From IMG/VR virus record IMGVR_UViG_2695420532_000004: a stretch of 12,713 nt of DNA; one strand, given 5' to 3'. Of this stretch, positions 3,084 through 12,713 are shown piece after piece. The position numbers and the translations under genes were made by a program. This DNA is from a virus. Lineage: Duplodnaviria; Heunggongvirae; Uroviricota; Caudoviricetes. Under the pieces are notes generated by a model that did not search any database, was not told the origin of the DNA, and saw only the letters and a list, made by a program, of their open reading frames with translations. Position 1 is the first letter of the stretch, and each line of letters starts with the position of its first letter.

Positions 3084-4136
3084 ATGAAAAATACTGTAAA
3101 AATAAACAGTGTTGATTTAATCAACGCTGATTGCCTGCATTTTATTCAGTCCCTGCCTGATGATTCCATTGACCTGATTGTTACCGATCCGCCGTACTTC
3201 AAGGTGAAACCCAACGGTTGGGACAATCAGTGGAAAGGGGACGAAGATTACCTTAAGTGGCTGGACCACTGTCTGGCCCAGTTCTGGCGGGTGTTAAAAC
3301 CTGCCGGAAGCCTTTATCTGTTCTGTGGGCATCGCCTGGCATCTGATATTGAGATCATGATGCGTGAACGTTTCAACGTGCTTAACCATATCATCTGGGC
3401 GAAGCCGTCCGGACGTTGGAATGGGTGTAATAAAGAAAGTCTGCGCGCATATTTTCCTGCCACAGAGCGCGTTCTGTTTGCTGAACATTACCAGGGGCCA
3501 TATCGCGGCAAAAGTGACGGCTATGCAGCAAAAGAAAGGGAACTCAAACAGCACATAATGGCACCGCTGATATCGTATTTCAGGGATGCTCGTGCCGAAC
3601 TGGGTATAACGGCAAAACAAATTGCCGAAGCCACAGGTAAGAAAAATATGGTTTCCCACTGGTTTGGTGCCAGTCAGTGGCAGTTGCCGAATGAGGCTGA
3701 CTATCGGAAGTTACAGGCACTGTTTTCCCGTATAGCGGCAGAGAAGTTTCAGGAACAACAACTGGAACAACCACACCACCAGCTGGTGGCATCTTATGAT
3801 TCACTGAATCGCAAATATTCTGAATTGCTGGATGAGTTTAAATCTCTCCGGCGCTATTTCTCCGTATCAGTCTCCGTGCCTTATACCGATGTCTGGACGC
3901 ATAAACCCGTTCAGTTCTACCCGGGTAAACATCCGTGCGAGAAACCGGCGGATATGCTCCGGCAAATAATCAATGCCAGTAGTCGCCCTGGTGATCTGGT
4001 TGCTGATTTCTTTATGGGATCCGGTTCCACAATAAAAGCAGCAATGGCGCTGGGGCGTCGGGCGTTAGGTGTTGAACTTGAGTCAGAGCGGTTTAATCAG
4101 ACGGTGAAAGAGGTAAGTGAACTGGTGGGGAAATAA
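3084..4136 (+). CDS. DNA methyltransferase, beta-class amino-MTase (probably N6-adenine), orphan
   Basis: Motif IV DLIVTDPPYF lies near the N-terminus and motif I (AdoMet-binding FFMGSGST...ALGRRALGVE) near the C-terminus; this IV-before-I order defines the beta class. A roughly 100-aa insert between them is a candidate target-recognition region. No restriction endonuclease gene is adjacent. Confidence 0.9.
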   Translation: MKNTVKINSVDLINADCLHFIQSLPDDSIDLIVTDPPYFKVKPNGWDNQWKGDEDYLKWLDHCLAQFWRVLKPAGSLYLFCGHRLASDIEIMMRERFNVLNHIIWAKPSGRWNGCNKESLRAYFPATERVLFAEHYQGPYRGKSDGYAAKERELKQHIMAPLISYFRDARAELGITAKQIAEATGKKNMVSHWFGASQWQLPNEADYRKLQALFSRIAAEKFQEQQLEQPHHQLVASYDSLNRKYSELLDEFKSLRRYFSVSVSVPYTDVWTHKPVQFYPGKHPCEKPADMLRQIINASSRPGDLVADFFMGSGSTIKAAMALGRRALGVELESERFNQTVKEVSELVGK

Positions 4137-4551: not shown

Positions 4552-5028
4552 ATGCAGGTACTAAATTCCCAGCGTAAAGCTTTCCTCGATATGTTGGCGT
4601 GGTCAGAAGGAACGGATAACGGGCGACAGCCAACCCGCAATCACGGCTACGACGTTATTGTAGGTGGTGAGTTATTCACGGATTACTCCGATCATCCTCG
4701 CAAACTTGTCACGCTAAACCCCAAACTCAAATCAACAGCCGCCGGACGTTACCAGCTTCTTTCACGCTGGTGGGATGCTTACCGTAAACAGCTTGGCCTG
4801 AAAGATTTTTCTCCAGAAAGCCAGGACGCTGTAGCTCTGCAGCAGATTAAAGAGCGTGGCGCTTTACCGATGATTGATCGCGGTGATATTCGTCAGGCTA
4901 TCGACCGTTGCAGCAATATCTGGGCTTCACTACCGGGCGCTGGTTATGGTCAGTTCGAGCATAAAGTTGACAGCCTGATTGCAAAATTCAAAGAAGCAGG
5001 CGGAACGGTCAGAGAGATTGAGGTATGA
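4552..5028 (+). CDS. R: endolysin, lambda R-type lytic transglycosylase
   Basis: The 158-aa translation ([26 protein letters not shown]...) is nearly co-linear with lambda R as recalled, including the catalytic-Glu context WSEGTD. RBS AAGGAG lies 6 nt upstream. Confidence 0.95.
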
Positions 5029-5492
5029 GCAGAGTAACCGCGATTATCTCCGCTCTGGTTATTTGTATCATCGCCTGCCTGTCATGGGCTGTTAATCATT
5101 ACCGTGATAACGCCATCGCCTACAAAGAACAGCGTGATAAAAAAGTCAGTGAGCTGAAGCAGGCGACCGCCACCATCGCTGACATGCAGCAGCGTCAGCG
5201 TGATGTTGCTGCGATCGATGCAAAATACACGAAGGAGTTAGCCGATGCGAAAACTGAAAATGAAACTCTGCGCGCTGATGTTGCCGCTGGTCGTAAGCGC
5301 CTGCGGGTCAATGCCAGTTGCTCCGCAGCCGTGCGTGAAGCCACCGGACCCACCAGCATGGATAATGCAACCAGCCCCCGACTGGCAGACACCGCTGAAC
5401 GGGATTATTTCACCCTCAGAGAACGGTTGATGACGATGCAGAAGCAACTGGAAGGGGCGCAGGAATATATCCGCACCCAGCGCATTAAGTAG
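5025..5492 (+). CDS. Rz: i-spanin Rz
   Basis: 155 aa with an N-terminal transmembrane segment and coiled-coil-like body, very similar to lambda Rz as recalled; its start overlaps the R stop (ATGA). Confidence 0.9.
5245..5430 (+). CDS. Rz1: o-spanin Rz1, lipoprotein embedded in Rz in the +1 frame
   Basis: 61-aa ORF wholly inside Rz with RBS GAAGGAG; lipobox LVVSAC and a proline-rich mature region ([24 protein letters not shown]) closely resembling lambda Rz1. Confidence 0.85.
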
Positions 5493-5876
5493 ATGGAGAA
5501 AAAACACGAATCTGTGGTTTTTACTGAGCGCGGTGTACACGGTGGAACATATGGCGGGAAGTTTGTTGCTTATGATTATGCAGCATGGCTAAACCCCGGA
5601 TTTAAATATGCAGCCTATAAAGTCCTGGATGACTACTTCACCGGAGAACTTCAGCATCGCAACAGCTTAAGTGCGCAGCTCAATATGAAGTGTCATGAGT
5701 TTGATCAGAAAAAAGATATGGCGAGCTTCTGTGGACAAGGGCTGGCGGCATGGCGCTATACGAAGCCAGTGTTGGTCGCTGAGATTAACTCCCTGGCTAA
5801 CCAGCTGCAGATAACGATCCCCGGGCTGTCCGGTATTTGCCGGTATGAAATTACCGGAAGGCGCGGTCGTTACTGA
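5493..5876 (+). CDS. KilA-N-like domain protein, apparently only the C-terminal half of the domain
   Basis: 127-aa ORF with GGTYGGKFVAYDYAAWLNPGFKYAAYKVLDDYF, resembling the conserved core of KilA-N/APSES domains. There is no clear RBS, and it starts on the codon immediately after the Rz amber stop, in the same frame. Confidence 0.45.
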   Translation: MEKKHESVVFTERGVHGGTYGGKFVAYDYAAWLNPGFKYAAYKVLDDYFTGELQHRNSLSAQLNMKCHEFDQKKDMASFCGQGLAAWRYTKPVLVAEINSLANQLQITIPGLSGICRYEITGRRGRY

Positions 5877-6329: not shown

Positions 6330-6824
6330 ATGGATCGAGAGTTAAAAAATCTGACGCTTAATATCAGTCAACTGGCGGCACTGTCAGGTGTACATCGCCA
6401 GACTGCTGCGGCAAGGCTGCAAAATCTACCCGTTGCAGGGGGGCATGAAAGCAACCTCAAGCTTTATCGGGTGGTTGATATTGTGTCGGCATTTCTGGCA
6501 TTACCACCGCCGGTTGCAGAAGGCGAAATGGACGCGCATGAGCGCAAAGCCTGGTATCAGTCTGAACGTGAGCGTCTTAAGTTCGAACAGGAAACGGCAC
6601 AACTCATTCCGGCCAGTGATGTCAGACGGGAGTTTGCCATCTGGGCAAAAGCGGTCGTGCAGGTGCTGGAGACATTACCGGATATTCTTGAACGTGACTG
6701 CGGTCTGCAGCCTGCCGCTGTGAGCCGTGTTCAGTCCATTATTGATGATCTGCGCGATCAGATAGCCCTGCGGGTGACTGAAGCAGGTGCGGATGATGAG
6801 GAGGAATTACAGCAGGAGGAGTAA
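6330..6824 (+). CDS. terminase small subunit (Nu1-like)
   Basis: 164 aa with an N-terminal HTH-like segment (LTLNISQLAALSGVHRQTAAARLQ) and acidic C-terminus. RBS GGAG lies 5 nt upstream; its stop overlaps the large-subunit start (TAATG). Confidence 0.85.
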   Translation: MDRELKNLTLNISQLAALSGVHRQTAAARLQNLPVAGGHESNLKLYRVVDIVSAFLALPPPVAEGEMDAHERKAWYQSERERLKFEQETAQLIPASDVRREFAIWAKAVVQVLETLPDILERDCGLQPAAVSRVQSIIDDLRDQIALRVTEAGADDEEELQQEE

Positions 6825-8926
6825 TGCTGAATCAGGAAACCGCAAAGGCAGCACGAACCGATTCAGGTTATATCCTTCGCGCACCGAGACGAATGCGGGT
6901 TGCTGATGCCGTTGCTCAGTATATGCGGGTGCCCATGGGGGCCGGGAACTCAGTCCCGTGGGATCCGCTGGTGGCACCGTATGTTATTGAGCCGATGAAC
7001 TGCCTGGCCTCGCGTGAATACGACGCAGTGATATTTGTTGGCCCGGCACGAACCGGCAAGACTATCGGCCTGATTGACGGCTGGGTGATTTACAACGTGA
7101 TTTGCGATCCTGCTGATATGCTGATCATTCAGATGACGGAGGAAAAAGCCCGCGAACACTCCAAAAAACGACTCGCCAGAACGTTTCGCGTCAGCCCGGA
7201 AGTGGTCAGTCGCCTGAGTCCGAACAAAAATGACAACAACGTTTATGACAGAACATTCCTTGCTGGCAACTACCTGAAAATCGGCTGGCCGTCAGTCAAT
7301 ATCATGTCCTCATCAGATTATAAATGCGTCGCGCTGACGGATTATGACCGTTTTCCGGAAGATATTGATGGCGAGGGGGATGCCTTCTCTCTTGCCTCAA
7401 AACGTACCACCACATTTATGTCCAGCGGTATGACGTTGGTGGAGAGTTCCCCCGGCAGGGATGTGAAGGATGTGAAATGGCGACGGACTTCACCGCATGA
7501 GGCTCCACCAACCACGGGGATCCTGTCGCTCTATAACCGTGGTGATCGCCGTCGCTGGTACTGGCCCTGTCCACACTGTGGTGAGTATTTTCAGCCCTGC
7601 GGCGATGTGGTTGCTGGTTTCCGTGATATTGCCGATCCCGTGCTGGCAAGTGAGGCGGCTTATATTCAGTGTCCTTCCTGTTCAGGACGGATTATGCCTG
7701 AACACAAACGTGAGCTGAACGGACGTGGGGTCTGGTTGCGGGATGGTGAATCCATCAATGCGGATGGCAGTCGTTATGGTGATCCCCGACGCTCACGTAT
7801 TGCGTCATTCTGGATGGAGGGTCCGGCAGCTGCTTACCAGACACTCTCGCAACTCGTTTACAAACTGCTTACTGCAGAACAGGAATACGAGACAACCGGA
7901 AGTGAAGAAACACTCAAGACGGTTATCAATACCGACTGGGGATTACCTTATCTTCCCCGCGCCAGCATGGAGCAACGAAAAAGTGAACTGCTTGAGCAGC
8001 GGGCAGAGCCAGTTCCTTCCCGCAGTGTGCCGGATGGCGTTAATTTCCTTGTGGCGACAGTGGATGTGCAGGCGGGACGTCATCGCCGTTTTGTGGTTCA
8101 GGTAACGGGCTATGGCAGCCGTGGCGAACGCTGGATTATTGATCGTTACAACATCACGCAGTCATTGCGCGGTGACAGCGACGGGGAGAGCCAGCGAATT
8201 GATCCGGCCAGCTATCCGGAAGACTGGGATGTCCTGCTGACGGATGTTTTTCATAAAAGCTGGCCGCTGGCCTCCGATCCTTCTCAACAAATGCGACTGA
8301 TGGCAATGGCGGTGGACTCCGGCGGTGAAGACGGGGTCACTGATAATGCCTATAAATTCTGGCGTCGTTGCCGTCGTGATGGCCTTGGTAAACGTATTTA
8401 CCTGTTTAAGGGCGACAGCATCCGGCGCGCAAAACTGATCACCCGTACATTCCCTGATAACACCGGACGAACGGGCCGACGGGCGCAGGCCGCAGGTGAT
8501 GTGCCGCTCTGGCTTCTTCAGACGGATGCACTGAAAGACCGGGTGAATAACGCGTTATGGCGTGACTCGCCAGGTCCCGGCTATGTGCATTTCCCTGACT
8601 GGCTGGGGAGCTGGTTTTACGACGAACTGACGTATGAAGAGCGGAGCAGTGACGGGAAATGGAGTAAGCCGGGTCGCGGTGCCAACGAAGCTTTTGACCT
8701 GATGGTGTATGCCGAGGCTCTGGTCATTCTGCATGGATACGAAAAGATCCGCTGGCCGGATGCACCGGAGTGGGCGAGCCGGGAAACCTGGCTGGAGTGT
8801 GTCCAGGACAGTACCGAACCGTCATCCTCACCGGAACCGGTATCCACGCCTGTTAAAAAACAAAAACGGAAGAAAACAGTAACTGACGATGTTAACCCCT
8901 GGCTGACTTCCGGAGGATGGTTATGA
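6824..8926 (+). CDS. terminase large subunit (lambda gpA family)
   Basis: 700 aa with a Walker-A-like FVGPARTGKT and a zinc-finger-like CPHCGEYFQPCGD...CPSCSG, co-linear in layout with lambda gpA as recalled. Confidence 0.95.
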   Translation: MLNQETAKAARTDSGYILRAPRRMRVADAVAQYMRVPMGAGNSVPWDPLVAPYVIEPMNCLASREYDAVIFVGPARTGKTIGLIDGWVIYNVICDPADMLIIQMTEEKAREHSKKRLARTFRVSPEVVSRLSPNKNDNNVYDRTFLAGNYLKIGWPSVNIMSSSDYKCVALTDYDRFPEDIDGEGDAFSLASKRTTTFMSSGMTLVESSPGRDVKDVKWRRTSPHEAPPTTGILSLYNRGDRRRWYWPCPHCGEYFQPCGDVVAGFRDIADPVLASEAAYIQCPSCSGRIMPEHKRELNGRGVWLRDGESINADGSRYGDPRRSRIASFWMEGPAAAYQTLSQLVYKLLTAEQEYETTGSEETLKTVINTDWGLPYLPRASMEQRKSELLEQRAEPVPSRSVPDGVNFLVATVDVQAGRHRRFVVQVTGYGSRGERWIIDRYNITQSLRGDSDGESQRIDPASYPEDWDVLLTDVFHKSWPLASDPSQQMRLMAMAVDSGGEDGVTDNAYKFWRRCRRDGLGKRIYLFKGDSIRRAKLITRTFPDNTGRTGRRAQAAGDVPLWLLQTDALKDRVNNALWRDSPGPGYVHFPDWLGSWFYDELTYEERSSDGKWSKPGRGANEAFDLMVYAEALVILHGYEKIRWPDAPEWASRETWLECVQDSTEPSSSPEPVSTPVKKQKRKKTVTDDVNPWLTSGGWL

Positions 8927-9135
8927 ACCAGAATGATATCGAAGCCATGATTCAGCGTTATATGGAAGCTGAAATGGCGGTGCTGGACGGAAAATCCGTC
9001 ACCTTTAATGGTCAGCAGATGACCATGGAAAACTTATCTGAGATCCGGCAGGGACGGCAGGAGTGGGAGCGCCGCCTTGCGGCTCTGATTACACGACGAC
9101 GGGGGCATCCCGGGTACCGGCTGGCGAGGTTCTGA
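8923..9135 (+). CDS. gpW-like head-tail joining / head completion protein
   Basis: About 70 aa; ATG 8923 overlaps the terminase stop (ATGA) and has GGAGG 7 nt upstream. The C-terminal TRRRGHPGY resembles the lambda gpW C-terminus. The ORF-track start at 8917 is too close to the RBS. Confidence 0.7.
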   Translation: MNQNDIEAMIQRYMEAEMAVLDGKSVTFNGQQMTMENLSEIRQGRQEWERRLAALITRRRGHPGYRLARF

Positions 9136-10643
9136 TGGCAATTCTTGATGATGTGATTGGCGTTTTTTCACCTGGATGGAAAGCGGCAAGGCTGCGTTCC
9201 CGTGCGGTGATCCAGGCTTATGAAGCCGTAAAAACGACGCGGACACACAAAGCCCGACGGGAGAACCGAACTGCCGACCAGCTAAGCCAGTACGGGGCCG
9301 TGTCGTTACGTGAGCAGGCCCGTTACCTTGATAACAACCACGATCTGGTTATTGGTGTATTTGACAAGCTGGAAGAACGGGTGGTGGGGAAAAACGGGAT
9401 TATTGTCGAGCCACATCCGGTATTACGCAATGGGGCCATTGCCCGTGATCTGGCAGCGGAGATTCGCACCCGATGGAGTGAATGGTCTGTCAGCCCGGAA
9501 GTCACCGGGCAGTTTACCCGTCCGATGCTGGAACGTCTGATGCTGCGTACCTGGCTGCGCGATGGTGAGGTGTTTGCCCAGATGGTTTCCGGGCGCATAA
9601 ACAGCCTGACGCCTTCTGCCGGTGTTCATTTCTGGCTGGAGGCGCTCGAGCCAGACTTTATTCCCATGACCAGTGATGAGAGCAACAGGCTGAATCAGGG
9701 CGTGTTTGTTGATGACTGGGGGCGTCCCGAAAAATATCTGGTGTATAAAAGCCGTCCCGTATCCGGACGGCAGATGGAAACCAAAGAAGTGGATGCAGAG
9801 CGAATGCTGCATCTTAAATTTGTTCGCCGTCTGCACCAGATGCGCGGGACGTCTTTGTTGTCCGGTGTGCTGATCCGCCTCAGTGCCCTGAAAGATTATG
9901 AAGATTATGAGCTGACTGCAGCAAGGATCGCCGCTGCTCTGGGGATGTACATCCGCAAAGGCGACGGGCAGAGCTATGAACCGGATGGTAATGGCAGCAA
10001 GGATAAGGAACGCGAGCTTACCATTCAGCCAGGCATTATTTACGACGATCTGAAACCCGGCGAAGAAATCGGAATGGTGAAGTCGGATCGCCCCAATCCT
10101 AATCTTGAAACTTTTCGTAATGGTCAGTTGCGTGCAGTGGCGGCTGGCAGTCGTCTGAGTTTTTCCAGTACAGCGCGCAACTATAACGGCACTTACAGCG
10201 CCCAGCGTCAGGAGCTGGTTGAATCCACTGATGGCTACCTGATCCTGCAGGACTGGTTTATTGGTGCCGTCACCCGCCCGATGTACCGTGCCTGGCTGAA
10301 ACAGGCTGTGGCATCCGGTGTTATCAGGCTACCCCGCGATCTTGACCGTTCTTCACTGTATACCGCGGTGTATTCCGGACCGGTGATGCCGTGGATTGAC
10401 CCTGTTAAGGAGGCTGAGGCCTGGAAAATCCAGATTCGTGGTGGAGCGGCGACAGAATCAGACTGGGTACGTGCAGGTGGTCGTAATCCGGATGATGTCA
10501 AACGTCGGCGCAAGGCCGAAATTGATGAAAACCGCAAGCTGGATCTGGTATTTGATACCGATCCGGCCAGTGATAAAGGAGGCAGCAGTGCCGCAACGAA
10601 ACGACAGGAGCCGCAGCACACCGACGACCAGTCCGAAGAATAA
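9135..10643 (+). CDS. portal protein (lambda gpB family)
   Basis: About 502 aa from ATG 9135, which overlaps the gpW stop (TGATG); the ORF-track start at 9063 would overlap gpW by 73 nt. Position after terminase/gpW and overall length fit a lambda-type portal. Confidence 0.9.
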   Translation: MAILDDVIGVFSPGWKAARLRSRAVIQAYEAVKTTRTHKARRENRTADQLSQYGAVSLREQARYLDNNHDLVIGVFDKLEERVVGKNGIIVEPHPVLRNGAIARDLAAEIRTRWSEWSVSPEVTGQFTRPMLERLMLRTWLRDGEVFAQMVSGRINSLTPSAGVHFWLEALEPDFIPMTSDESNRLNQGVFVDDWGRPEKYLVYKSRPVSGRQMETKEVDAERMLHLKFVRRLHQMRGTSLLSGVLIRLSALKDYEDYELTAARIAAALGMYIRKGDGQSYEPDGNGSKDKERELTIQPGIIYDDLKPGEEIGMVKSDRPNPNLETFRNGQLRAVAAGSRLSFSSTARNYNGTYSAQRQELVESTDGYLILQDWFIGAVTRPMYRAWLKQAVASGVIRLPRDLDRSSLYTAVYSGPVMPWIDPVKEAEAWKIQIRGGAATESDWVRAGGRNPDDVKRRRKAEIDENRKLDLVFDTDPASDKGGSSAATKRQEPQHTDDQSEE

Positions 10644-12615
10644 TTCCTGGTTCAGGATGCAGGCTGGTCACCAGAGTGACGCGGATATTTATATTTATGA
10701 CGAGATTGGTTTCTGGGGTGTTACAGCGAAGCAGTTTATCAGTGATCTGAATGCACTGGGCGATATCACCCACATTAATCTCCATATCAATTCACCGGGT
10801 GGCGATGTCTTTGAAGGCATCGCCATTTTTAATGCGCTGAAAACACATGGTGCGTCCATTACCGTTTATGTCGACGGTGTGGCGGCGTCAATGGCGTCGG
10901 TCATTGCGATGGTGGGAAAACCGGTCATTATGCCGGAAAACACCTTCATGATGATTCATAAACCATTTGGCTTTACGGGCGGTGATGCGGAGGACATGCG
11001 CACCTATGCCGACCTGCTCGATAAGGTTGAGGCGGTTCTGTTACCCGCTTATGCACAGAAAACCGGGAAAACCACCGATGAAATTGCTGCCATGCTGGCG
11101 GATGAGACCTGGATGTCCGGTGCCGAATGTCTGGCACATGGATTTGCTGATCAGGTGACGCCAGCCGTTAAGGCAATGGCATGTATTCAGTCAAAACGTA
11201 CAGAGGAATTTAAAAAGATGCCGGAATCCATTCGAAACATGATTACTCCGCCACGCAACAGTGCTCCACGCGTACAGGATAATGAACCTGCAGCCTCCCG
11301 GACGCCAGTGCAGGCAGCAGCACCCGTGGTGGATGAAAACAGTATCCGTGCGCAGGTACTGGCAGAGCAAAAAGCGCGTGTAAACGGTATTAATGATCTG
11401 TTTGCCATGTTTGGCGGGCGTTATCAGACGCTGCAGGCTCAGTGTCTTGCCGATCCTGAATGTTCGCTGGAGCAGGCCCGCGAAAAGCTGTTGAACGAGA
11501 TGGGGCGCGAGTCCACGCCATCCAATAAAAATACCCCGGCTCATATTTATGCCGGTAACGGTAATTTTGTGGGGGACGGGATCCGCCAGGCGCTGATGGC
11601 GCGTGCCGGATTTGAAAAAACCGAACGTGATAATGTCTACAACGGGATGACCCTGCGTGAATATGCCCGTATGTCACTGACTGAACGGGGTATTGGGGTT
11701 TCCGGTTATAACCCGATGCAGATGGTCGGTGCGGCGTTCACACACAGTACGTCTGACTTCGGTAATATTCTGCTGGATGTTGCGAACAAAGCCATTCTGC
11801 AGGGCTGGGAGGATGCCCCTGAAACCTATGAACAGTGGACGCGGAAAGGTCAGTTGTCTGATTTTAAAATTGCCCATCGCGTGGGTATGGGGGGCTTCAG
11901 TGCTCTGCGTCAGGTGCGTGAAGGGGCGGAATATAAATACGTCACCACCGGAGATAAACAGGCCACTATTGCACTGGCGACCTATGGCGAGCTGTTCAGT
12001 ATCACCCGTCAGGCCATTATCAATGATGATCTGAATATGCTGACCGATGTCCCGATGAAGCTGGGCCGTGCGGCGAAATCCACTATTGCCGATCTGGTTT
12101 ATGCCATTCTGACGTCTAACCCGAAAATCTCCACAGATAATGTAAGTCTGTTCGATAAAGCGAAACATGCAAACGTACTGGAGGACGCTGCAATGGACGT
12201 GGCATCGCTGGATAAAGCCCGCCAGTTGATGCGTGTTCAGAAAGAGGGGGAGCGTCATCTGAATATTCGTCCTGCGTTCGTACTGGTACCGACGGCGATG
12301 GAGTCTGTTGCTAACCAGGTCATTCGCTCCTCAAGTGTCAAGGGGGCTGACATTAACGCCGGTATTATTAACCCGGTGAAAGATTTTGCGACCGTTATTG
12401 CAGAGCCTCGTCTTGATGATAACAGCCAGACCACCTTCTACCTGGCTGCGTCAAAAGGCTCCGATACGATTGAAGTGGCTTATCTCAACGGTGTGGATAC
12501 GCCATATATTGATCAGATGGAGGGCTTCAGTGTGGATGGCGTGACAACGAAAGTGCGTATTGACGCCGGTGTCGCGCCAGTTGATCACCGCGGTCTGGTG
12601 AAATGTACGGCGTAA
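10588..12615 (+). CDS. fused prohead protease (ClpP/S14-like) - scaffold - major capsid protein (HK97-fold), Gifsy-2-type tripartite capsid gene
   Basis: One uninterrupted frame. The N-terminal part has a ClpP-like protease signature (DIYIYDEIGFWG ... INSPGGDVFEGIAIFNAL ... MASVIAMVG ... MMIHKP); the middle is low-complexity and helical; the C-terminal roughly 300 aa reads as an HK97-fold major capsid protein. Start is uncertain: GTG 10588 has AAGGAGG 5 nt upstream but overlaps the portal by 56 nt; ATG 10657 is the first ATG after the portal stop but has no RBS. Confidence 0.85.
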   Translation: MPQRNDRSRSTPTTSPKNNSWFRMQAGHQSDADIYIYDEIGFWGVTAKQFISDLNALGDITHINLHINSPGGDVFEGIAIFNALKTHGASITVYVDGVAASMASVIAMVGKPVIMPENTFMMIHKPFGFTGGDAEDMRTYADLLDKVEAVLLPAYAQKTGKTTDEIAAMLADETWMSGAECLAHGFADQVTPAVKAMACIQSKRTEEFKKMPESIRNMITPPRNSAPRVQDNEPAASRTPVQAAAPVVDENSIRAQVLAEQKARVNGINDLFAMFGGRYQTLQAQCLADPECSLEQAREKLLNEMGRESTPSNKNTPAHIYAGNGNFVGDGIRQALMARAGFEKTERDNVYNGMTLREYARMSLTERGIGVSGYNPMQMVGAAFTHSTSDFGNILLDVANKAILQGWEDAPETYEQWTRKGQLSDFKIAHRVGMGGFSALRQVREGAEYKYVTTGDKQATIALATYGELFSITRQAIINDDLNMLTDVPMKLGRAAKSTIADLVYAILTSNPKISTDNVSLFDKAKHANVLEDAAMDVASLDKARQLMRVQKEGERHLNIRPAFVLVPTAMESVANQVIRSSSVKGADINAGIINPVKDFATVIAEPRLDDNSQTTFYLAASKGSDTIEVAYLNGVDTPYIDQMEGFSVDGVTTKVRIDAGVAPVDHRGLVKCTA

Positions 12616-12616
12616 A

Positions 12617-12713
<97 letters not shown>

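Follow-up and report, generated by a model that had tools for sequence, protein, structure and literature searches.

A window of 12,713 nucleotides (nt), i.e., the whole stretch of DNA analysed here from the Caudoviricetes record IMGVR_UViG_2695420532_000004, carries at positions 10588-12615 an intact orthologue of the Gifsy-2-type tripartite head gene (NCBIfam NF045540), in which a protease, a scaffold-like segment and a major capsid protein are encoded in a single frame. The gene is not new: its family is curated, an orthologue has been studied experimentally, and near-identical copies are found in isolated phages and in thousands of genomes. The only possibly new element is a conserved initiation site within it. 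From the sequence signatures described below, the ATG at 11218 (Met211) is rather probably a second, internal start, which would also yield a scaffold-capsid protein that lacks the protease. The internal start appears, with a similar degree of probability, to be conserved in both families of fused genes, the ClpP-type NF045540 and the HK97-protease-type NF045541, and the main block of the shell would come from it.

The plus strand frame is free of stop codons from 10396 to the TAA at 12613-12615, as read from the open reading frames (ORFs) of the window. Positions 10588-12615 are the exact coding sequence called by the Prokaryotic Genome Annotation Pipeline (PGAP) on identical DNA of E. coli 2013C-3264 (WP_001136585.1, 675 amino acids (aa)), where the product is named [quoted passage not shown]. 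Read from the GTG at 10588, from which residues are counted here unless stated otherwise, the full-length gene (10588..12615, + strand, as are all its parts) has 675 codons and a stop and encodes a protein of 73.6 kDa. It begins with an N-terminal extension (residues 1-23, 10588..10656) that contains a conserved Ser20-Trp21 pair encoded past the portal stop codon. The ClpP-like (S14-type) prohead protease domain follows (residues ~32-190, 10681..11157) and is placed by Pfam, by NF045542 and by alignment with ClpP structures. The linker part of the protein (residues ~211-325) comprises a Pro/Ala-rich linker that is predicted to be disordered (residues ~215-248, 11230..11331) and a helical scaffold-like segment with three predicted helices (residues ~250-308, 11335..11511). 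It is followed by the HK97-fold major capsid protein region (residues ~326-675, 11563..12612, 38.2 kDa), which was assigned by Pfam, AlphaFold and Foldseek. In the 652-aa numbering from ATG 10657, Pfam CLP_protease matches residues 23-168 (E 4e-36) and Phage_capsid_4 matches residues 356-649 (E 2e-54); counted from the GTG, the match to PF25209 spans residues 379-672 (11722-12603). A weaker Pfam match in the capsid part is to Mu-like_gpT (E 4e-8), and the PHROG 133 profile covers the head protein end to end. The first-pass annotation, made from the letters alone, had proposed that one frame encodes a ClpP-like protease, a linker or scaffold-like segment and an HK97-fold capsid protein, and this composition is confirmed by the ORF, Pfam, NCBIfam and Foldseek.

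The putative nested gene runs in frame from Met211 to the same stop codon (11218..12615, + strand) and would encode the scaffold-like linker and the capsid protein, together 465 aa and 50.7 kDa. Its ATG is situated 21 codons past the protease domain. An AGGA core (11204..11207, + strand), a putative internal Shine-Dalgarno (SD) sequence, is followed by an A/T-rich spacer, with the ATG 10 nt downstream of the core. A first scan of viral contigs gave only loci that are 72-100% identical, which are too uniform to test an internal start; the tests therefore used S78-type loci, i.e., those of the NF045541 family, together with species-representative genomes. Met211 is invariant in 81 of 81 aligned sequences, the sister family NF045541 included, and the Met211-Pro pair is invariant both in the ClpP-type viral contigs (76/76) and in the species-level prophages (68/68). 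Of 41 distinct contexts of ClpP-type genes, 39 have the AGGA exactly 10 nt before the ATG. Its “AG” comes from a codon for Glu, Gln or Lys that ends in G in all 39 contexts, against a background of 39% (binomial p 1.5e-16, uncorrected for phylogeny).

In the S78-type family, the equivalent of Met211 lies in a hypervariable linker that is rich in indels. Here 68 of 73 ORFs, which are 36-67% identical to that of Rhodobacter phage RcKai, contain, at 420-520 aa from the C-terminus, an ATG whose SD reaches -5 kcal/mol or lower. These ATGs are usually preceded at 6-9 nt by AAGGAGG or GGAG, although the encoded residues differ. Strong-SD ATGs in this family cluster at the internal site and are found almost nowhere else, with a median of -8.0 versus a background of -2.45.

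The mRNA at the internal site is predicted to be open. The 50-nt segment at ATG 11218 folds at -1.4 kcal/mol, where the mean of the gene is -11.1, and ranks among the 0.5% most open; its GC content is 36% versus 52% gene-wide. The median openness percentile at the internal site is 2.3% in ClpP-type and 5.1% in S78-type genes. Among 14 conserved Met columns, Met211 alone combines full conservation with an SD in 96% of sequences and an open mRNA. Two further internal sites with an SD and an ATG, at 10996 and 12193, were considered and rejected: both looked strong in the uniform set but lie in structured mRNA, the SD at 10996 is too near its ATG, and diverged homologues do not share the Met at 12193.

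Several points weigh against an internal start. The peptide around Met211, SKRxE[ED]FxxMP, is itself conserved in the ClpP-type family, and Met211 could be conserved for reasons of the protein. The 10-nt spacing of the AGGA is at the long end for E. coli, and the duplex energy is modest (-6.0). The genuine nu3 start of lambda does poorly by the SD and openness measures (SD -6.9, structured mRNA), which are thus neither necessary nor calibrated. In addition, the homologues are phylogenetically related and the binomial p value thus overstates their independence.

These points bear on an alternative that is possible, if clearly less probable than two starts, namely that the same gene with the same GTG start makes strictly one product. 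All ~415 subunits would then be made as the 73.6-kDa polypeptide, with the protease removed by autoproteolysis, and the AGGA and ATG would be kept by the demands of the protein where its domains meet, or as an SD-like pause in aid of co-translational folding. One product is what the term “tripartite capsid gene” literally says, and in the literature the Gifsy-2 genes are simply called fused. The conserved peptide around Met211 and an AGGA duplex of only -6.0 kcal/mol with a 10-nt spacer agree with this account, as does the presence of chance SD+ATG sites at 12193 and 10996. However, a constraint on the protein does not readily accommodate a third base that is G in 39 of 39 Glu, Gln or Lys codons despite an amino acid that changes charge. 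Nor does it fit the S78-type linker, which has no conserved peptide and yet keeps a canonical SD and ATG, and only the Met211 column pairs an SD with open AT-rich mRNA, which the chance sites do not. A single product also means that ~415 copies of a non-shell protein of ~35 kDa are packed into a T=7 procapsid; by our own estimate this is dense, not impossible.

Two observations from the databases concern the same position. Unfused family members of 400-480 aa exist, and their N-termini coincide with the Met211 site. Protein P0127 (467 aa, 99% identical to residues 214-680 of RcKai) stems from a gene that was called from the internal Met on short metagenomic contigs. Its length is exactly that of the proposed nested product, which fits a strong internal ribosome binding site, but truncated contigs may explain it. 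A literature search on protease-capsid fusions with internal starts returned genome announcements only and gave no account of such a nested product, the primary Gifsy-2 paper being outside its reach.

The start of the full-length protein was also assessed. The portal gene of the lambda gpB family (9135..10643, + strand; Pfam Phage_portal_2, E 8e-82; a PGAP coding sequence on identical DNA) shares the last 56 nt of its 3′ end with the head gene if the latter starts at GTG 10588. An SD sequence, AAAGGAGG (10575..10582, + strand), is situated inside the portal coding sequence, 5 nt before this GTG, and the motif is also present in Eeyore and in many enterobacterial homologues. The duplex with the anti-SD has an energy of -11.6 kcal/mol at GTG 10588, the strongest among in-frame starts, and of -2.2 at ATG 10657. 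The mRNA structure near GTG 10588 is average (35th percentile). The codons of Ser20 and Trp21 (10645-10650) lie in the short interval from the portal stop to ATG 10657; neither residue varies among the window, Gifsy-2, Eeyore and Pseudomonas phage Solano, and Trp21 is also present in diverged homologues. The best SD-preceded start inside the 3′ end of the portal gene gives an overlap of 56 nt in the window, 86 nt in Gifsy-2, 56 nt in Eeyore and 29 nt in Solano. Such a start is also found in 39 of 44 distinct contexts from diverged species, where it overlaps the portal gene by 14-92 nt (median 56). From this comparative evidence, which largely settles the matter, GTG 10588 is clearly favoured over ATG 10657 as the translation start. 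The first-pass annotation had described an overlap of up to 56 nt with the portal gene, which is 56 nt with the GTG start; its wording of an uncertain start was too strong in view of the SD energy, the Ser20-Trp21 pair, the homologues and the like design of lambda gene C.

A start at ATG 10657, with a protein of 652 aa as in phage mEp460 and no portal overlap, is improbable. In its favour, no start codon is more frequent than ATG, mEp460 is annotated with this start in GenBank and RefSeq, and the NCBIfam and Pfam profiles begin downstream of it. Against this stand its negligible SD (-2.2 kcal/mol) and the conserved Ser20-Trp21 pair, which is upstream of the ATG and outside the portal frame. 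The Met24 column, which corresponds to this ATG, has Ile in Gifsy-2 and Solano and Ile, Leu or Phe in most diverged homologues, so these must start upstream, and distant stand-alone ClpP-like head proteases align with residues upstream of Met24. An N-terminal segment VPQRNDRSRSTPTTSPKNNSWFR would argue against the ATG 10657 start, the product of which begins with MQAGHQ. The ATGs at 10492, 10495, 10525 and 10657 were all rejected as starts for poor SDs or for want of conservation. Versions of the gene in the databases disagree on the start and have 675, 652 or 707 aa; a start fixed at GTG 10588 would correct these inconsistent annotations.

The first-pass annotation raised the question of translational coupling at this start. 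Initiation probably occurs directly through the strong SD, perhaps aided by ribosomes that are finishing the portal gene and open the mRNA. The portal stop is 56 nt downstream of the GTG, and classical termination-reinitiation is thus unlikely.

That the protease-capsid fusion is an artefact or a product of decay, with two genes run together in a defective prophage through an error of sequencing or a pseudogenising indel, can be dismissed as hardly credible: the prophage is broken by an insertion sequence, indel-made portal-capsid fusions of this locus exist in databases, and relatives with split protease and capsid genes are found, e.g., Vibrio phage K237, but the identical continuous frame is present in the plaque-forming phages mEp460, phi458, Tritos and Ayreon, and the continuous frame is also present in 1,964 complete E. 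coli genomes, in Gifsy-2 and in 68 species-level prophages, and is described by a curated NCBIfam model. A stop codon or frameshift between protease and capsid is likewise excluded by thousands of independent intact copies.

The portal-capsid fusions are of a different kind. At least 10 ORFs of 1158-1159 aa that join the portal, ClpP and capsid domains are found in databases (e.g., P0005, P0008, P0009, P0012 and P0013). Their frame junctions differ, at ~10410, 10425, 10565 and 10592, and thus point to deletions of 1 nt or errors of assembly that are scattered over the 250 nt open in both frames (10396-10643). A programmed portal-capsid frameshift was considered and is ruled out by the scatter of the junctions. 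Upstream of its start, the capsid frame has no stop codon for 192 nt; thus portal-capsid fusions arise easily, and this also explains the 707-aa mis-annotations such as P0003.

The protease domain scores 215 bits with NCBIfam NF045542 (cut-off 120, residues 32-190). Its segments GVAAS101MA and MIH124KP align with the catalytic Ser and His motifs of the ClpP structures 1y7o and 6hwm (GxAASMA and MIH(K/Q)P). Ser101 is encoded at 10888-10890 and His124 at 10957-10959. S101, H124 and E173 are invariant in the alignment of the window, Gifsy-2, Eeyore and Solano. At the position of the third residue of the ClpP triad, an Asp, there is the invariant Glu173, and the adjoining Asp172 is variable; Glu173 may take the place of the ClpP Asp in the triad. 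With the clpP equivalog TIGR00493 the domain reaches only 61.6 bits against a cut-off of 308.6. It is thus, by these profile scores, related to ClpP (NF045542) and is no ClpP orthologue. The window protein has no match to PF04586 or TIGR01543, the models searched for an HK97-type S78 (U35) protease.

The capsid half has zero sequence matches in PDB, where the ClpP part alone was matched, and structure prediction was thus needed. An AlphaFold2 model of residues 200-675 was made from the 81-sequence alignment, with a mean predicted local distance difference test (pLDDT) value of 61.6 and a predicted template modelling (pTM) score of 0.53; a model of this moderate quality backs the fold assignment but not a cleavage site or fine domain boundaries. 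The Pro/Ala-rich linker has pLDDT values below 50 (model residues 16-49) and is variable and rich in indels in alignments of homologues. The three helices of the scaffold-like segment are at model residues 51-74, 81-89 and 95-109 (pLDDT 72-86). The scaffold-like region is conserved between ClpP-type and S78-type fusions, and NF045541 matches from residue 222. A second predicted disordered stretch at residues ~308-325, followed by an alpha/beta core with a long helix, is most likely the place of maturation cleavage, as judged from the model; the predicted bounds of the cleavage site are residues ~308 and ~378. A Foldseek search of the model against PDB gave 87 matches at E<=1e-3. The top 50 are all HK97-fold capsid or encapsulin proteins (E 5e-7 to 2e-4), among them encapsulins, the JBD30 procapsid, HK97 prohead I and II, T5, P4, D3 and Bxb1; their TM-scores are low (0.35-0.56), as follows from the moderate model. 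Thus the C-terminal part does resemble HK97-fold capsid proteins, by PF25209, by Mu-like gpT and by the Foldseek top 50.

The kinship of the gene is well defined. It scores 983.8 bits with NCBIfam NF045540 (scaf_prot_MCP1; cut-off 475) over residues 32-674. Alignment to the Gifsy-2 product STM1034.3n with BLASTP shows full-length homology, with 70% identity and 83% positives over residues 18-674. This identity and the like gene order agree with the earlier view that the tripartite gene is known from Gifsy-2 and hence not new. The DNA is 99-100% identical to genes of phages mEp460, cdtI, phi458, Tritos and Ayreon, and the fused ORF is present in 28 phage records at a coverage of at least 80%. 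Full-length copies, likewise at 99-100% DNA identity, are found in 1,964 of 5,426 complete E. coli genomes (~36%), which refutes, for E. coli, the statement in the first-pass annotation that such a gene is unusual among lambdoid phages. Data with one genome per species contain 68 full-length fused ORFs (51-100% identity) from Enterobacterales, Pasteurellaceae, Shewanella and Pseudomonas. A search with residues 211-675 against 1.84 billion cluster representatives gave 7,980 relatives at E<=1e-10. The 150 best are mostly proteins of 620-800 aa whose match falls in the C-terminal two-thirds; thus the fused form dominates this capsid lineage. The gene marks the prophage only as a member of the Gifsy-2 / mEp460 / cdtI head lineage. 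In E. coli this is one of the most frequent types of lambdoid head, and cdt- and some Stx-converting phages belong to it.

Taken as a whole, an account in which the gene gives both a full-length protein from GTG 10588 and a nested product from ATG 11218 is the one we favour, with somewhat better than even confidence. Translation from GTG 10588 would give the 73.6-kDa protein, in which a ClpP-like serine protease is joined to a disordered linker, a helical scaffold-like segment and the HK97-fold capsid protein. Ribosomes would also start at ATG 11218 and make the 50.7-kDa scaffold-capsid protein without the protease. Most subunits would be the internal product, a counterpart of HK97 gp5 and its delta domain; the full-length form would be a minority subunit that is co-assembled by way of its capsid part and brings the protease into the interior of the procapsid. 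From what is known of HK97, lambda and Gifsy-2, the capsid part may form a T=7 procapsid on the portal, its scaffold and protease parts turned inward. The protease would then remove everything N-terminal to the mature capsid protein (~38 kDa), and a trimeric decoration protein (DUF2190, encoded downstream in intact relatives) would stabilise the expanded shell.

If correct, this account explains how a fused protease-capsid gene avoids a protease on each of ~415 subunits. Translation would then set how much protease a fused head gene supplies, as it does for lambda C/Nu3 and herpesvirus UL26/UL26.5. The principle of nested protease and scaffold genes, seen in lambda, Mu, herpesviruses and an archaeal virus, would extend to thousands of fused head genes, and the annotation of these genes would change to two products.

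The head module of the window has the lambda-like order of small terminase (DUF1441, 6330-6824), large terminase (gpA-type, 6824-8926), gpW-like adaptor (8917-9135), lambda-type portal and tripartite gene; the terminases and the adaptor were assigned by Pfam, PHROG and PGAP. The left end of IS100, an element of the IS21 family, is present at 12617..12713 (+ strand), where 97 nt are identical to the IS100 copy annotated in NZ_CP148378. IS100 is inserted 2 nt past the capsid stop codon, and the window ends within the element. Intact relatives have at this site a rho-independent terminator and a DUF2190 decoration gene. The capsid gene itself is intact, but IS100 cuts the head-tail operon of the prophage, and this operon is probably crippled. 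There is no lambda-like cos motif (GGGCGGCG) in the window, and no tRNA genes or Rfam matches were found in it.

Other genes of the window lie upstream of the head module. Between the antiterminator Q gene (1374-1760) and the lysis genes are a 214-aa ORF at 1809-2453 (phrog_8498, with no Pfam or NCBIfam match) and an N6/N4 DNA methylase gene at 3084-4136. The interval between Q and the lysis genes is a frequent position of cargo genes in lambdoid prophages. A 61-aa ORF at 5245-5430 (+ strand), in the +1 frame inside Rz (5025-5492), has a lipobox-like VVSAC and a Pro-rich tail and is most likely the embedded Rz1 o-spanin. The ORFs at 171-374 and 5493-5876 match different parts of phrog_129, a transcriptional regulator (profile positions 206-269 and 64-175), and the second also has an ORF11CD3 domain; the two may be fragments or modular relatives of an antirepressor/Rha-like gene.

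The closest experimentally studied system is Gifsy-2 (Effantin et al. 2010, Virology 402:355). Its gene STM1034.3n (NC_010393, 22471-24561) encodes 696 aa. It shares with the window gene the three-part architecture, the gpW-like adaptor and lambda-type portal upstream, a start within the 3′ end of the portal gene, and the conserved Met211-Pro with an upstream GAGGAG. In intact relatives a small decoration gene is found downstream. The Gifsy-2 gene has an ATG start and an overlap of 86 nt, whereas the window gene has a GTG start and an overlap of 56 nt; the linker lengths differ, and only the window has IS100 downstream. The Gifsy-2 product reportedly consists of a ClpP-like N-terminus, a central domain of ~200 residues with a possible scaffolding role and a C-terminal HK97-like capsid protein. 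Compared with the other members of NF045540, i.e., those of mEp460, cdtI, phi458, Tritos, Ayreon and many prophages, the window gene itself shows no difference. In the literature, the Gifsy-2 protease and coat genes are described as fused, the capsid as T=7 and the decoration protein as trimeric (PMC12315714, PMC8814770 and PMC8538268).

The NF045541 genes of the RcKai type (L007, 1763-3805, and loci L088-L167) have in common with the window gene a PF25209 capsid protein, the fused layout after a lambda-type portal, a related linker and scaffold (~31% identity over residues 251-672), and an internal SD and ATG past the protease domain. They differ in the protease, which is an unrelated HK97 gp4-type domain (PF04586, S78/U35) in place of the ClpP-like one. 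The family is found in alphaproteobacterial and metagenomic phages, and represents a swap of the protease domain within a conserved fused architecture. In the split layout of Vibrio phage K237 (L247, 2501-4427), the ClpP-like protease (240 aa) has its start codon 29 nt within the portal gene, and the major head protein has a gene of its own, 28 nt past the protease. The fusion junction of the window, with its Met211 site, thus matches a boundary between genes in K237.

HK97 gp5 is also an HK97-fold capsid protein with an N-terminal helical scaffold segment that is removed by a protease, although no sequence similarity to gp5 was detectable in a phmmer search against PDB. The putative internal product would be its direct analogue, as the scaffold stays joined to the capsid protein. 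HK97 differs in having a separate gene, gp4, for an S78 (herpesvirus-assemblin-like) protease, and in its chainmail crosslinks without a decoration protein.

Lambda has the same module order of W, portal B and protease gene. The lambda protease belongs to the S49 family and that of the window is S14-like; the lambda capsid protein E is encoded by a separate gene, is of a different Pfam family and is preceded by the decoration gene D, whereas the scaffold of the window gene is covalently joined to the capsid protein. Lambda gene C starts with a GTG behind AGAGGAGG, 20 nt inside portal gene B, and the start of the window gene is of like design. An in-frame internal start in lambda C, just past a protease domain of the ClpP/crotonase clan, makes the scaffold Nu3. 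Nested protease and scaffold genes of this type are established for lambda C/Nu3, for UL26/UL26.5 of herpes simplex virus 1 (HSV-1) and for gp17/17.5 of HFTV1, and, by the position and signals of its GTG start and of the putative internal start, the window gene probably works like lambda C/Nu3.

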